A stretch of DNA of 64,000 nt from an uncultured Bacilli bacterium (GTDB lineage: Bacteria; Bacillota_I; Bacilli_A; RF39; UBA660): positions 13,199-77,198 of the forward strand of contig CALVOW010000003.1 in NCBI GenBank assembly GCA_944350445.1. The letters run 5' to 3'. Under the pieces are notes generated by a model, which saw only the letters and a list, made by a program, of their open reading frames with translations, did no database searches and was not told where the DNA came from. Shown one piece after another: positions 45,808 through 51,553 of the stretch; position 1 is the first letter of the stretch, and the number at the start of each line of letters is the position of its first letter. Position numbers and translations under genes: made by a program.

Positions 45808-46431
45808 TTAAACCACTATTAAACCACTATTTAATATTTCTTTTAATTTTACATTATAATCTTCAATAACTTGTAAACTAGACTCAATACTATTTAAGCA
45901 AGAATTCATTTGTCCTCTTAATCTTGTAACTTTTTCTTCATAGGCCGAAGCTAATGCGTCAAATCCATTTGCCTTTTTATCAGCTATTGTTGTTTCTAAA
46001 GATTCTATTTCACTTTTATAACTATAATATCTTTGAAAACTATTATCAACTCCATCAGTTAATGTCATATATTCGTATGTTAAATGCTTAAACTCAGTAC
46101 TAAATTCTTGATATGCTTCTAAGGAAGCATCATGTATCTTTGCTGCAACTTCATCAATATAAACTTTGAATCCATCTAAATTTTTAATTAATTGTTGTAT
46201 TTTAGAACATGTGTTAGGAAATCGTTCTTCATTCGGCATAACAGACCTTGTCTTTTCAATTAAAGCGGCCAATGATGTGGACAATTCATCAAACCTATTT
46301 TTTACTAAATTAATATCATTGTCATAGATTGATGATTCAGAAAAAGTAGTTGCATTTTTATCTTTTATATTAGCAAGATAATCTCCTTCAGCACGATCAT
46401 ATCTTTTAAATAAAGTATCTATTGCACTCAT
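45808..46431 (-). CDS. Hypothetical all-helical protein, module-1 partner (T7SS-associated)
   Basis: 207 aa with no TM or signal peptide. ATGA start/stop overlap with the 421-aa gene and strong SD GAGGAGGG. Weak similarity to the 189-aa ORF (AYQEFSTEF vs TYDNFLLEF; RYYSY vs RYNY). Confidence 0.6.
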   Translation of the reverse strand: MSAIDTLFKRYDRAEGDYLANIKDKNATTFSESSIYDNDINLVKNRFDELSTSLAALIEKTRSVMPNEERFPNTCSKIQQLIKNLDGFKVYIDEVAAKIHDASLEAYQEFSTEFKHLTYEYMTLTDGVDNSFQRYYSYKSEIESLETTIADKKANGFDALASAYEEKVTRLRGQMNSCLNSIESSLQVIEDYNVKLKEILNSGLIVV

Positions 46432-47693
46432 ACACCCTCCTCATGTATTATTGTAGTGCCTGACTCAGCAGAAACAGCTGGCTCACCCGAAGAATTTGCA
46501 CCTGACTGCATACCTGACTCAACAGAAACGGATGGTTCACCAGATGTATTTAAACCATTTGAGACATTTGTATCTGTTGAAATTGTCGGTTCAATTGTTG
46601 TCGAACCAATCGAATCAAGAGAAGTTACTTCAATTGAATCACTAAATGGAATATAATAAGTCTCTCCAGTTCCATCTTCTACTACTTCATAGAAAGTAAT
46701 ACCATTACTTTCTGTTTCTCCTTGAACAAAATATATTTTATTAGGATCAGCTAATTTAACAAAATTATCACTACCAATTTCAGTTGAATTTAAAAGCATA
46801 GCATTTTCTTTAATTTCAACAATTTTTTCATATTCCGTTGCAAACTGTACTTGATTATTAACTGGTACATAATAAACTTTACCTGTTGCATTATCAATTA
46901 TTTTATAATAATAATTATCACCGTCTTTTACAATTTCTAAAACTGAATAGTTTCCATCAATGCTTGCTTGTGTTCCTACACCACCAATAGTTTCATACAT
47001 TGTAACAGTTTCTGTTAAAACCAATGTACCAAACATTATTATTGAATCATTAAAATCATTATCAATATCAGGTTGTTCAGTATCAGTTCCTGGTATAACA
47101 TCCGGCACCTCATCTGGCAGAATATCTGGTATAACCGGATCTTCTGTATTGGTACTTTCAGATGACGAAGATCCACCAGAAGGTGAAAAAACATAAGTTC
47201 CAGTAGGTTGTTCTGTAACGGAACTAGTAGTAGCATCTTCTTCTTCCGTCGCTGCTTTAAGCGTAGCAACAGTGCTTATAATGTCGTTAAAATAATCAAT
47301 ACACCTAGCAAACTGTGTACTCATATCATATTCTAAATTAGCAAGTGTAATCCCCATTGTAGCCAACTTTTCAGAAGTCTTTGCATTTATACTAGCATAA
47401 TGGGTAATAGCAACATTAATCTTTTCTCTTATGTCAGTATCAAAATCAGAAATACACGATTTAAAACTGTTCATAAAATTTTCGGCTTCCTCACTATTAT
47501 ATTTTAAATTATTAGTATTAGCTATTTTGGAAATAGCAACAAAAGATATAGAAGTGGTAGCCGAATTCATTCCAACTTCATTACCAGTATCGTTGCTAGT
47601 TGTTGTATCACTATCGGATGGAACAGCAGATGATACAGCACCTGGTTCTTCACTACTCATATCTATTGGCGTTTTCTCTGCGTTAGAATCCAT
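46428..47693 (-). CDS. Hypothetical signal-less secreted-type protein, module 1 (candidate T7SS substrate)
   Basis: 421 aa. S/T/D-rich N-terminus, ~100-aa helical region, acidic P/S/T linker, two related beta-rich repeats (GKVYYVPVNN / GETYYIPFSD), and an S/G/E-rich repeat tail. No hydrophobic signal peptide. SD AAGGAG. Confidence 0.6.
   Translation of the reverse strand: MDSNAEKTPIDMSSEEPGAVSSAVPSDSDTTTSNDTGNEVGMNSATTSISFVAISKIANTNNLKYNSEEAENFMNSFKSCISDFDTDIREKINVAITHYASINAKTSEKLATMGITLANLEYDMSTQFARCIDYFNDIISTVATLKAATEEEDATTSSVTEQPTGTYVFSPSGGSSSSESTNTEDPVIPDILPDEVPDVIPGTDTEQPDIDNDFNDSIIMFGTLVLTETVTMYETIGGVGTQASIDGNYSVLEIVKDGDNYYYKIIDNATGKVYYVPVNNQVQFATEYEKIVEIKENAMLLNSTEIGSDNFVKLADPNKIYFVQGETESNGITFYEVVEDGTGETYYIPFSDSIEVTSLDSIGSTTIEPTISTDTNVSNGLNTSGEPSVSVESGMQSGANSSGEPAVSAESGTTIIHEEGV
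46459..46547 (-). repeat. Imperfect direct repeat (2 x ~35 nt, 54-nt period) in the 3' end of the 421-aa gene
   Basis: cctgactcagcagaaacagctggctcacccgaaga vs cctgactcaacagaaacggatggttcaccagatgt, encoding SGEPxVSxESG twice. Locally GC-richer than the surroundings. Confidence 0.7.
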
Positions 47694-47728
47694 ATTTTCA
47701 CTCCTTCCTTTTCTATTTTAATATAGAA

Positions 47729-47748
47729 AAGACACTTTAAAGTGTCTT
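47729..47748 (-). promoter_or_regulatory. Palindromic stem-loop between the WXG100 pair and the 421-aa gene (attenuator or partial terminator)
   Basis: AAGACACUUUAAAGUGUCUU followed by UUCUAUAUU (weak U-tract). Confidence 0.45.
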
Positions 47749-49811: not shown

Positions 49812-49863
49812 ATTATCACATTATTAATATGGAAAATAAAAAAAAAGATATACAAAAATACTT

Positions 49864-50421
49864 TTATATTTTTTCTAATCCTTTTTTAAGTAAACTTTCT
49901 AAATCTTCAAAAATAATGGGAACTTTATTAATTTCTAAATAAAAATTATTATAGCAAGTTGCTTTTTTGTTTTTTATGTCATTATAATTTGGATCATTTA
50001 CTGCTAAATTAGATAAAGTATAGTTGTAACGATTATAACTATCTAAATGATTTTTAGCACTATCCAAATATCTGGAAGCATTTAAAACATTAGTATTAAA
50101 TTCTAAAAGAAAATTATCATAAGTTAAATTAGAAGCTGATCTTAAAGTAGTTGCAAATTCATTTAATTTAATATCATAAGTATGAAAATTATTATAAATT
50201 TCATTAAGCGAAGAAAAAAGATGTGAATAATTATTTTCTTGAAAATTCAAACGAATATTAGATATTTCTTGATTTATAAATTGATATTGCTCTTGTAAAT
50301 TAGCAATGCCTTTAAAATCTAATATTTCTTTTTGATATAATAAACTATTTTCATAAGTTTTTGAACACCTATTTTTAATATTTTGAAGTTGTTCTTTTAA
50401 ACTATAATATTTATTATTCAT
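49864..50421 (-). CDS. Hypothetical all-helical protein, module-2 partner (T7SS-associated; immunity or chaperone candidate)
   Basis: About 185 aa with no TM. Likely ATG 50421 behind a GAGTGGTGA SD, overlapping the 379-aa gene stop (ATGAATAA). N/Y-rich helical sequence, distantly similar to the 207-aa ORF. Confidence 0.55.
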   Translation of the reverse strand: MNNKYYSLKEQLQNIKNRCSKTYENSLLYQKEILDFKGIANLQEQYQFINQEISNIRLNFQENNYSHLFSSLNEIYNNFHTYDIKLNEFATTLRSASNLTYDNFLLEFNTNVLNASRYLDSAKNHLDSYNRYNYTLSNLAVNDPNYNDIKNKKATCYNNFYLEINKVPIIFEDLESLLKKGLEKI

Positions 50422-51553
50422 GTACATCACCACTCGTTCTTGTAATAATTGTAAATGTATTATCAGCTCTTAAATAAGTTTCAAATTCATCTAAAGGTAC
50501 CCAACCAAGCCGATTAGTATCCGTTCCATTTATATATTCGGTTGTTCTTTCCGGAATAGGAATAGCTGAATCTGCAACAAAAACCATTTCCTTGCCATTT
50601 TCTACTTTATAATCAAGAACTGCCACATAATGCCCCGAATCAGTTTGATAACGACCACTATCATTTCTTTCTAATCTAACAACCATAGTCATCTTTTCTT
50701 CACTTATATTATTATATAAATCTTCTTTATTAAGAACTGTATCACCTACTTTAATCTTATCGTTTAAATAATCATTTTGATCGACAACATCAGACGTTAA
50801 AACATCAGAAAAATATTCATCAACTATTTCCTTAGTTACTAAATAACGATTAGTAGTTAACTCTGTTTTATTAAAATCGCCATTTTTTAATAATTCGTTA
50901 ATTCCTAGTAAAATTCCCGCATTTAAAGAATTAATACTAATTGCATTATTAGCTAAATTAGAATCACTCGCTAATACTTCGGAAACTTCTGCCGGTGTTA
51001 AAAGATTAAAAATAGCATTAAAGGAAGCACAAGCACTACATGATGATCTAGCAATATCCCAATTATCTGAACTAAAAGCATAGGGATTGTCAAGATTAAA
51101 TAAAATTCCGCCATCTCTTAGATTCATTCTTTCAGTATCAGACATATTTTCATAATCATCATAAGTAGTATAAGCATATTGAGCTAATATAAAATATACT
51201 TTGCCATCCGTTTGTATTAAAACATCACTTACTTGACTATTAATTAATTCCATGGCATTAACAATATTTTTAAACTTAGCTATTTCTGTTTCTATAAATG
51301 GTAATAAATTATTATCAATATTTGGTAAATAATCGCCTTTTAAATCATCTTCAGAAATTTTACAATTTTCTCTAGTTTCCATACTAATTGAGTCTAAATA
51401 AAGATTAATAAAGTTACTAGTATCAACATTAGCTATTTCTTCCTTCATTTCCTCAAGTTTTTTTAATAAATTCAAAGCATCATCTGAATCATATGCTCTT
51501 TGTAATTTTGTATCATTTACTTGTGGATATAAATTACCAATTTCTTTCACCAT
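50414..51553 (-). CDS. Signal-less protein with a helical N-terminal region and a C-terminal papain-fold Cys-His-Asp domain (candidate T7SS effector or cell-wall hydrolase)
   Basis: 379 aa. Candidate triad: Cys in SSCSACASFNAIF, His in DSGHYVAVLDY, Asp in VFVADSA, in the order and spacing typical of C39-like/transglutaminase-like folds. No signal peptide. SD AGAGGTG. Confidence 0.55.
   Translation of the reverse strand: MVKEIGNLYPQVNDTKLQRAYDSDDALNLLKKLEEMKEEIANVDTSNFINLYLDSISMETRENCKISEDDLKGDYLPNIDNNLLPFIETEIAKFKNIVNAMELINSQVSDVLIQTDGKVYFILAQYAYTTYDDYENMSDTERMNLRDGGILFNLDNPYAFSSDNWDIARSSCSACASFNAIFNLLTPAEVSEVLASDSNLANNAISINSLNAGILLGINELLKNGDFNKTELTTNRYLVTKEIVDEYFSDVLTSDVVDQNDYLNDKIKVGDTVLNKEDLYNNISEEKMTMVVRLERNDSGRYQTDSGHYVAVLDYKVENGKEMVFVADSAIPIPERTTEYINGTDTNRLGWVPLDEFETYLRADNTFTIITRTSGDVHE

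Follow-up and report, generated by a model that had tools for sequence, protein, structure and literature searches.

Paralogous helical proteins coupled to signal-less putative cargo genes at a reduced type VII secretion locus in an uncultured Bacilli bacterium: a candidate export handle comparable to LXG

Two pairs of coupled genes at a type VII secretion system (T7SS) locus are described here from a stretch of DNA ("the window") of 64,000 nucleotides (nt), corresponding to positions 13,199 to 77,198 of the forward strand of contig CALVOW010000003.1 in GenBank assembly GCA_944350445.1. The assembly is a 1.34-Mb draft, 94% complete and in 46 contigs, of the small genome of an uncultured gut Bacilli bacterium, and the G+C content of the window is approximately 26%. 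All genes of the locus are encoded on the minus strand. Flanked by rluB and a CmpB-like membrane gene on one side and by hrcA on the other, they follow one another in the order 74 amino acids (aa), 379 aa, 185 aa, FAD-oxidoreductase/Rieske fusion, WXGa, WXGb, 421 aa, 207 aa, EssC and YukD-like. In each pair, a gene encoding a larger protein without a signal peptide (379 or 421 aa) is followed by a gene encoding a smaller, helical protein (185 or 207 aa). The larger proteins are referred to below as cargos and the smaller ones as carriers, in keeping with the interpretation for which we argue. The features are as follows, with the two pairs first.

50414..51553, minus strand: 379-aa signal-less putative cargo, with a presumably helix-rich N-terminal region of ~110 aa followed by a probable C39-like papain-fold domain
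49864..50421, minus strand: 185-aa helical putative carrier ("185-type"), paralog of the 207-aa protein, ending in LLKKGLEKI
46428..47693, minus strand: 421-aa signal-less putative cargo, with a helical hairpin and a tandem SH3b-like beta module predicted by AlphaFold2 and Foldseek
45808..46431, minus strand: 207-aa elongated helical putative carrier ("207-type"), with the turn motif NAT.[FY]E.S
48040..48312, minus strand: WXGa, 90 aa, WXG100-like, with a conserved W-S-G turn motif (NWSGTE) though at 17.3 bits below the PF06013 cut-off of 27.3
47759..48031, minus strand: WXGb, 90 aa, WXG100-like, without a WxG motif, in an EsxB/Lap-like position (16.4 bits on TIGR03930, below cut-off)
41045..45682, minus strand: EssC, 1545 aa, motor ATPase of the type b T7SS (T7SSb), with an N-terminal extension and a membrane segment (TIGR03928)
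40789..41043, minus strand: YukD/EsaB-like ubiquitin-fold protein, 84 aa (PF08817, 16.4 bits, below cut-off)
48393-49811, minus strand: FAD-oxidoreductase/Rieske fusion, 472 aa
51589-51813, minus strand: acidic 74-aa open reading frame (ORF)
51803-52687, minus strand: CmpB-like (PF06541) membrane gene

The stop codon TGA of the 421-aa gene shares the tetranucleotide ATGA with the start of the 207-aa gene (46431-46428), and GAGGAGGG is found just upstream of this junction. In the other pair, the stop codon TAA of the 379-aa gene overlaps the ATG at 50421 by 8 nt, ATGAATAA (50421-50414). Both overlaps had been pointed out in an earlier reading of this DNA made without database searches (the sequence-only reading), and both are exact. 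The 185-aa gene has two alternative starts, a GTG at 50433 (189 aa, the mechanical ORF) and an ATG at 50427 (187 aa, a frequent choice of gene callers); the ATG at 50421 is favoured because orthologues begin with MNNKY or MNTKY, and all three candidate starts overlap the 379-aa gene. None of the four pair proteins contains a signal peptide or a membrane segment as judged by hydropathy (maximum Kyte-Doolittle 19-residue mean ≤1.27, polar N-termini), which bears out the earlier description of the upstream proteins as signal-less.

The sequence-only reading also proposed that the two carriers are paralogs, citing short colinear matches between them (AYQEFSTEF/TYDNFLLEF and RYYSY/RYNY). BLASTP returned nothing significant for the 207-aa protein against the 189-aa version of its counterpart, nor for the 421-aa protein against the 379-aa protein; pairwise searching is too weak for these proteins. 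With profiles built from close relatives only, hhalign aligned the 207- and 185-aa proteins with a probability of 88.9% (E 2e-6); once genus orthologues were added (12 and 5 sequences), the alignment extended end to end over 171 columns with a probability of 97.8% (E 6.7e-13, score 84). Control scores were far lower, at 11.9 ± 2.0 (maximum 17.7) for column shuffles, 17.9 for a reversed alignment, and 21 ± 4.6 (maximum 38) for shuffles of 14-column blocks. Moreover, when the 185-aa protein was compared by phmmer with all 2323 ORFs encoded in the genome, it matched only itself and the 207-aa protein. Motifs common to the alignment are [AS]T.[FY]E.S..[YC]..D at the first turn and LLxKGLxK at the extreme C-terminus, and the short colinear matches fall inside this significant end-to-end alignment and are thus not due to chance. 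On the evidence of these profiles, the 207- and 185-aa proteins are true paralogs, as had been proposed.

The same is not true of the upstream proteins. The two modules had been described as parallel in both genes, but the N-termini of the 421- and 379-aa proteins share no detectable domain (hhalign probability 0.3%), and the parallel is confined to the partner gene and the layout. Comparison by hhalign of the cargo N-termini and the carrier with the WXG proteins gave probabilities of at most 3%, except for the C-terminal half of the carrier against WXGa (24%), a similarity too weak to be claimed as homology.

The AlphaFold2 model of the 207-aa protein, computed from the combined alignment, is an elongated bundle of four helices (residues 3-21, 34-63, 72-154, and 158-204) built on the 83-residue third helix, with a mean predicted local distance difference test score (pLDDT) of 96.5 and a predicted template modelling score of 0.81. 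The earlier description of both downstream proteins as all-helical is borne out by this model for the 207-aa protein, while for the 185-aa protein it follows from homology. The best Foldseek match of the model in the PDB has an E of 0.026, and the matches are generic helical bundles (BBH37, BAR domains, and alpha-pore-forming toxins), with no T7SS or LXG entry among the top 50. Searches of all four pair proteins against Pfam, NCBIfam, and PDB sequences returned only sub-threshold coiled-coil noise; weak matches to dynein, SMC, haemagglutinin HA2, and similar proteins were rejected as compositional.

Word-indexed searches recovered merely five to eight close relatives for each protein, and a scan of the contigs of the genome with the 207-aa family found nothing. 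The extent of the carrier family was instead taken from a full hidden Markov model (HMM) scan of 1.84 billion representative proteins, with matches counted as clusters at 50% identity. At least 135 clusters match at E ≤1e-3 and 78 at E ≤1e-10, and the family they form is unannotated. The great majority of the matches examined (98 of 121) are 170-260 aa in length, and the strong ones match nearly end to end. Two subfamilies can be distinguished, the 185-type (9 clusters, mean length 187 aa) and the 207-type (89 clusters, mean length 213 aa). The strict tail motif LLxKGLKK is present in 28 of 98 members, compared with 3 of 506 background ORFs, and in most relatives of the 207-aa protein the tail reads LL[ED]KGLKK. 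The family profile also matched the middle of a 3457-aa ORF in one related genome (G010), a match that was set aside as coiled-coil noise.

Approximately nine members of the family carry the domain at the N-terminus of a longer protein (P0073, P0097, P0102, P0105, P0109, P0113, P0119, P0146, and the second fusion gene of locus L030, which is a cut-off sequence). These fusion proteins are 363-642 aa in length, and a distinct C-terminal region begins directly after the GLKK motif. In P0102 this region contains a zinc-protease-like motif, HETGH (HExxH), and in P0105 a papain-like pattern, Cys...GGHW...D; in P0073, P0097, P0109, P0113, and P0119 it consists of RHS/YD or DUF2963 repeats, and in P0146 it is a domain without an assigned family. 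A match to ATLF in these C-termini (E 0.15) is not taken as evidence. An N-terminal helical domain combined with interchangeable C-termini is the signature of polymorphic-toxin trafficking domains, of which LXG is the T7SSb example (PMC10801868, PMC9600955).

The fold and the fusions bear on the question of whether the carrier leaves the cell. It could be a cytoplasmic chaperone or adaptor, similar in role to EsaE or EspG, which hands the helices of the upstream protein to EssC and stays inside. Translational coupling to the client gene would suit such a role, as would the service of one family to two unrelated clients and the prevalence of stand-alone members. We nevertheless consider a chaperone rather unlikely: a position N-terminal to RHS/YD and enzyme-like C-termini is typical of exported trafficking domains, the elongated helical bundle resembles T7SS substrates and is unlike the globular EspG fold, and no matches to EsaE or EspG families were found in Pfam or NCBIfam.

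At least eight congeneric species share the order WXGa-WXGb-421-like-207-like-EssC-YukD; in them, the 421-like proteins range from 383 to 614 aa and the 207-like proteins are merely 22-24% identical. The 4-nt overlap between the 421-like and 207-like genes is kept in L041, L001-L004, L038, and L046, and elsewhere it is replaced by another short overlap or by a gap of a few nt. At L038, the FAD/Rieske gene is followed by WXGa, WXGb, an 859-aa 421-like protein, and a 207-like protein, the last two with an ATGA overlap, and a second substrate module and EssC lie ~6 kb further on.

The 379/185 pair does not belong to this core arrangement but is accessory: the window, the near-identical strains L001-L004, and G011 have it, whereas G004, G008, and G017 lack it and have the FAD/Rieske gene directly after the 74-aa gene. 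A distant relative of the pair is found at L037 in an orphan module inside a capsule locus, composed of WXGa-like, WXGb-like, 379-like (E 7e-43), and 185-type genes. The fusion forms have comparable surroundings. At L030, a WXG pair precedes the P0105 carrier-toxin fusion, two small genes, and the second fusion, and at L031, the P0102 carrier-metalloprotease-like fusion shares a 4-nt overlap with a gene whose product has two SH3b domains at its end, and is followed by a small membrane or lipoprotein-like gene.

Both pairs are thereby tied to the T7SS, as the sequence-only reading had supposed: in at least eight species the 421/207 pair has a WXG pair on one side and essC on the other, and the distant 379/185-type pair has a WXG pair of its own. 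WXGa and WXGb precede the 421/207 pair in the window and the genus, and their counterparts precede the 379/185-type pair at L037; LXG genes have two small helical Lap genes upstream. The 379/185 pair of the window has no WXG pair of its own. The carrier family is held by 17 of 61 related genomes, and all 17 encode an EssC above the family cut-off, a co-occurrence that agrees with the earlier expectation though it is confounded by phylogeny, nearly all holders among the 61 genomes belonging to one genus. The two congeners without EssC also lack the carrier family.

EssC scores 1004 bits on TIGR03928 (cut-off 778), which identifies it as a Firmicutes-type EssC. It is ~75% identical between species of the genus, and the YukD-like protein, which adjoins it throughout the genus, is 73-80% identical. 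The other components of the machinery were searched for in the 94%-complete genome: no match to PF10140 or TIGR03929 was found for EssB/YukC and EsaA/YueB, and all matches to TIGR03927 (EssA/YueC) are sub-threshold and lie inside unrelated large ORFs. As this locus shows, an EssC of the T7SSb type need not be accompanied by EssB, EsaA, and EssA. WXGa and WXGb have no Pfam match to the Lap families DUF3130, DUF3958, DUF5082, and DUF5344.

Two other arrangements upstream of EssC were observed. In one congener (G002, contig C2; L040), housekeeping genes are found in place of the WXG/421/207 block; the block is either not universal in the genus or is located elsewhere in the G002 genome. In another genus of the family (L044; G029, contig C6, 4209-6822), two paralogous proteins of 419 and 446 aa are encoded directly upstream of EssC, in each of which a WXG100-like N-terminus (NWDG) is joined to a C-terminal region of greater size, a different substrate design beside an orthologous EssC.

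In the AlphaFold2 model of the 421-aa protein, residues 1-63 are disordered and are followed by a helix-turn-helix hairpin (67-156, pLDDT 82-88), a disordered acidic linker rich in S, T, and P, a two-lobed beta module (~218-365, pLDDT 80-88), and a disordered, repeat-bearing tail. The sequence-only reading had each upstream protein begin with a helical region of about 100 aa; this is only partly right, since in the 421-aa protein a helical region of this kind is present as the hairpin, but the protein starts with the 63 disordered residues. The best Foldseek matches of the beta module are tandem SH3b-type wall-binding domains (8alu, E 9e-4; 4krt, 1e-3; 4epc, 2e-3; probability 0.99-1.0), namely the SlpA teichoic-acid-binding domain, the endolysin of phage phiSM101, and the AtlE repeats. 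No match to the Pfam SH3 model PF08239 was found in eight members of the 421-aa family, and it is by fold similarity only that the module is predicted to be SH3b-like and wall-binding. Across the genus it is the best-conserved part of the 421-like proteins, the hairpin being weakly kept. The tail (window 46428-46600) is composed of S/G/E-rich SGEPxVSxESG repeats whose copy number varies between strains, and the length of the 421-type protein varies from 404 to 491 aa inside one cluster at 90% identity.

A second T7SS substrate operon, unlinked to the window, is found on another contig of the same genome (C4, 41507-44867; L033). Its products are a WXG100 protein of 95 aa; a WXG-like protein of 103 aa, which at 26.6 bits narrowly exceeds the cut-off of the LXG model; a protein of 280 aa in which a helical N-terminus precedes two canonical SH3_3 domains (E 1e-26); two short helical proteins of 124 and 112 aa; and a protein of 383 aa whose N-terminus is helical and whose C-terminus is of a Cys/His papain-like kind. 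T7SS-linked proteins with two canonical SH3_3 domains are also encoded at L030, L031, and L038. Because the C4 operon and these three loci show the same theme, signal-less wall-binding partners can be said to recur with T7SS modules in this lineage. We found no published description of such a recurrent link between T7SS modules and SH3b-type partners.

Comparison with a near-identical strain (L001; EssC 99.5% and FAD/Rieske protein 99.8% identical) revealed a mosaic in window positions 45808-48335. DNA identity is 78-91% over the WXG genes, drops to ~50% over the N-terminal half of the 421-aa gene, rises to 98-100% in the SH3b-like module, declines to 79% and further to 53% within the 207-aa gene, and is 100% in essC. 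The WXG genes, the 421 hairpin, and the C-terminal half of the 207-aa protein are down to 42-80% identity between near-identical strains, with the SH3b module at 100%. Two hypervariable blocks, one of WXGa, WXGb, and the N-terminal half of the 421-aa gene and the other of the C-terminal half of the 207-aa gene, thus interrupt a region that is otherwise 99-100% identical, and are split by an identical SH3b-like segment. This pattern points to allelic replacement by recombination. The 421 hairpin type and the 207 C-terminal type travel together in the two haplotypes seen, a hint, from two haplotypes only, that the helical parts may contact each other and be swapped as sets.

The wall-binding module and the mosaic bear in opposite directions on the proposal that the 421/207 pair belongs to the secretion machinery, where it would stand in for EsaA, EssB, and EssA as a conduit or scaffold that spans the wall or is anchored in it, with the 379/185 pair a later duplication taken over for an enzyme. 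The genome lacks these three components, the pair is fixed just upstream of essC across the genus, and an SH3b-like module would suit a component embedded in the wall. Neither protein has a membrane segment, however, and with EssC 99.5% identical between near-identical strains, hypervariable helical parts would be out of the ordinary for core machinery. Some members of the family are encoded in orphan modules at a distance from essC or as fusions to toxins, and the L038 pair is separated from essC by other genes. A machine part is therefore, in our estimation, improbable.

The second putative cargo is unrelated to the first. The sequence DxWDIARSSCSACA, with conserved Cys172 and Cys175, is invariant in six aligned 379-type homologues; the His of GHY, the Asp of VADSA, and Cys172 are invariant in the five full-length homologues, and the Cys is also present in the sixth, which is mosaic. 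The 379-aa protein has no direct Pfam match, Peptidase_C39_2 (PF13529) included. Its C-terminal 86 columns, comprising the His/Asp half, align (hhalign 96.8%, E 2e-10) to the Pfam-confirmed PF13529 domain of an 855-aa protein encoded elsewhere in the genome, which is also detected by phmmer (E 4.7e-7) in an alignment that leaves the Cys region uncovered and is the closest relative within the genome of the 379-aa catalytic half. By this transitive similarity, the C-terminal domain of the 379-aa protein is most likely a papain-fold hydrolase and a likely cysteine peptidase. The 855-aa protein (contig C12, 8436-11003) is itself a membrane protein: it begins with an N/Q-rich stretch, has a membrane segment and a region weakly resembling SpoIID, and ends in the Peptidase_C39_2 domain. 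A "Rosetta stone" homology between the 379-aa enzyme and the Cys/His C-termini of P0105 and of the LXG-like toxins in C4 and L038 was considered and is not detectable, the resemblance being at the level of motifs.

No immunity-type gene follows the 379/185 pair in the window or at L037, and an enzyme acting outside the cell, for example on the wall, would thus fit better than a cytoplasmic toxin. The carrier gene itself does occupy the usual place of an immunity gene, directly downstream of a putative enzyme, and the sequence-only reading had accordingly counted an immunity factor among the possible roles of the downstream proteins, alongside chaperone and co-substrate. We regard this role as highly improbable. 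Members of the same family also follow an unrelated, non-enzymatic wall-binding protein, belong to the conserved core locus, and make up the N-terminal part of toxin-like proteins, and at L030 and L031 other small genes take the immunity position after the fusions.

The neighbouring genes can be dealt with briefly. The small acidic 74-aa ORF upstream of the 379-aa gene had been suggested as a third component of that module. It overlaps the CmpB-like gene by 11 nt, the two genes overlap in every case across the genus, and it is conserved in species without the 379/185 pair (L014, L018, and L041). Because of this constant overlap it is assigned to the CmpB-like gene, with which it forms a two-gene unit of its own, and the suggestion is not upheld. 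The FAD/Rieske fusion is located directly upstream of the WXG pair in the genus (L014, L016, L018, L019, and L041), with 57-60% identity across species, and the same adjacency is seen in the more distant metagenome-assembled Bacilli genome that contains L038 (L038:3983-5371). Since it is kept across the genus and in L038, its linkage to the T7SS locus is not accidental. An insert of ~1.5 kb interrupts the gene in G004 (L014).

The resemblance of the carrier family to LXG was examined directly. No match to PF04740 was obtained in 16 members of the family at E ≤0.05, or in 10 longer members at E ≤0.01; as a positive control, the same model gave 53.9 bits for a true split LXG protein in a related genome (L035), which in turn is not matched by the carrier-family profile at E ≤1. 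The LXG motif is an LxG in a turn near residue 40 that buttresses the export arm of the partner (PMC10801868). This turn motif is absent from the carrier family, in which the first turn reads NAT.[FY]E.S and the sole conserved Gly is in the C-terminal LLxKGLKK. Because the family is not detectably related to LXG, the analogy rests on architecture and context, and the earlier comparison with LXG/Lap pairs, made with the proviso that their motifs are missing, is apt at the level of logic. The L035 protein is of interest in its own right: it is a stand-alone LXG protein of 215 aa (G396, contig C27, 1399-2046) with two small helical genes before it and a gene for a separate 308-aa protein after it, so that the LXG family proper likewise includes designs in which handle and cargo are split.

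On balance, we lean towards the view that the 207/185 family is a previously undescribed T7SS export handle working in the manner of LXG, and that the pairs are split co-substrates composed of a cargo and its carrier. Among the roles that the sequence-only reading had listed for the partner of a T7SS substrate, that of co-substrate fits best, with chaperone a lesser possibility. In this lineage the handle would usually be a separate polypeptide, translated by coupling right after the signal-less cargo gene. The cargo of the core pair would be the helical hairpin with its tandem SH3b-like wall-binding module, and that of the accessory pair the C39-like papain-fold enzyme. The N-terminal helices of the cargo, the carrier, and the two 90-aa WXG100-like proteins could assemble in the cytoplasm into one long helical bundle, which EssC would recognise, perhaps via the conserved tail of the carrier, and export together with the folded domain of the cargo, whose function would then lie outside the cell. 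Certain other bacteria have toxin-like C-terminal domains attached directly to the handle, and the split and fused forms may represent two solutions to the same task.

Several observations weigh against this handle-and-cargo interpretation. The N-termini of the two cargos are unrelated, and a common docking mode is for this reason conjectural. The 207-aa protein of the window has a degenerate tail, ILNSGLIVV, and most members of the family, the two window proteins among them, are stand-alone, the fused forms being a minority whose C-terminal domains have no significant Pfam match. The helical compositional bias of these proteins yields many weak coiled-coil matches, no kinship with LXG is detectable by Pfam HMM, PDB sequence profile, or Foldseek, and the co-occurrence with EssC is subject to the phylogenetic confounding noted above.

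A more specific and more tentative proposal concerns the system as a whole, which may be a stripped-down T7SSb, with EssC and YukD only, whose substrates are built on an unrecognised "GLKK" bundle in fused or split form. The conserved cargo would be a secreted SH3b-type wall binder that pins the complexes to peptidoglycan or teichoic acid, in the wall of the producing cell or of a neighbour, or that replaces the wall-spanning role of EsaA, and the hypervariable helical alleles could act as determinants of assembly specificity. We think this picture possible and would not put it higher.

These results bear on how T7SSb substrates are recognised and on how they cross, or attach to, the thick Gram-positive wall; to our knowledge, LXG together with Lap is the only well-defined targeting module of T7SSb. 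If the carrier family is an export handle, it would be a second such family, unrelated in sequence and existing in both fused and split forms, and in the split form nature would provide a test of which feature EssC recognises, the conserved tail being one example. The recurrent tie between T7SS modules and SH3b-type wall-binding partners is a further result, and at least 135 clusters of "hypothetical proteins" from gut and rumen metagenomes receive a name.

Parallels can be drawn with several known systems. The PE/PPE pairs and EspB of the mycobacterial T7SSa likewise involve adjacent, co-translated, paired helical partners and elongated bundles, with a conserved tail or arm as a candidate recognition signal. 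They belong to another phylum and system type, and no PE, PPE, WxG, or YxxxD/E motifs occur in the present pairs, one partner of which carries a folded, non-helical domain. A possible functional parallel to the 379-aa C39-like and 421-aa SH3b-like proteins is EssH, a secreted peptidoglycan hydrolase of the papain superfamily (CHAP) that is encoded with a T7SS and is needed for T7 secretion in Staphylococcus aureus. EssH has a Sec signal peptide; the 379-aa protein lacks one and comes instead with a partner of the T7SS carrier type.

The T7SS subtypes c-j described by Garrett, Higginson and Palmer in 2024 (PMC11217815) resemble the present locus as reduced Bacillota systems in which EssC, a YukD-like protein, and WXG100 proteins are joined by additional genes particular to the lineage. 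The EssC of the window is of the T7SSb type (TIGR03928), in a locus without EssB, EsaA, and EssA that fits no described subtype, and none of the subtypes c-j lists a 421/207-like pair or SH3b partners (PMC11217815). In S. aureus, the export of EsaD requires the small helical partners EsxB, EsxC, and EsxD together with the chaperone EsaE (PMC10653861). The likeness is in the need of a larger cargo for small helical partners and in the multi-protein helical pre-secretion complex, which exists for EsaD and is proposed here for carrier, cargo, and WXG proteins. There is no sequence kinship, and the carriers differ in being ~200 aa long, paralogous between modules, and in some cases fused to toxin-like domains, while the modules of the window are without an immunity gene or an EsaE-like gene.

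The closest counterpart is the LXG domain with its Lap1/2 or Lap3/4 partners, as in the TelA-LXG-LapA3-LapA4 complex (PDB 8GMH; PMC10801868, PMC9600955). Like LXG, the carrier is an elongated helical domain of ~200 aa without a signal peptide, is located N-terminal to variable toxin-like domains in some members, has two small WXG100-like genes upstream in some modules, and is linked to a T7SSb-type EssC. The two differ in fold, the carrier model having four helices, one of them of 83 residues, where TelA-LXG has nine helices and a beta-hairpin (PMC10801868). They differ also in organization, most carriers standing alone with the cargo on a separate, upstream, translationally coupled polypeptide.

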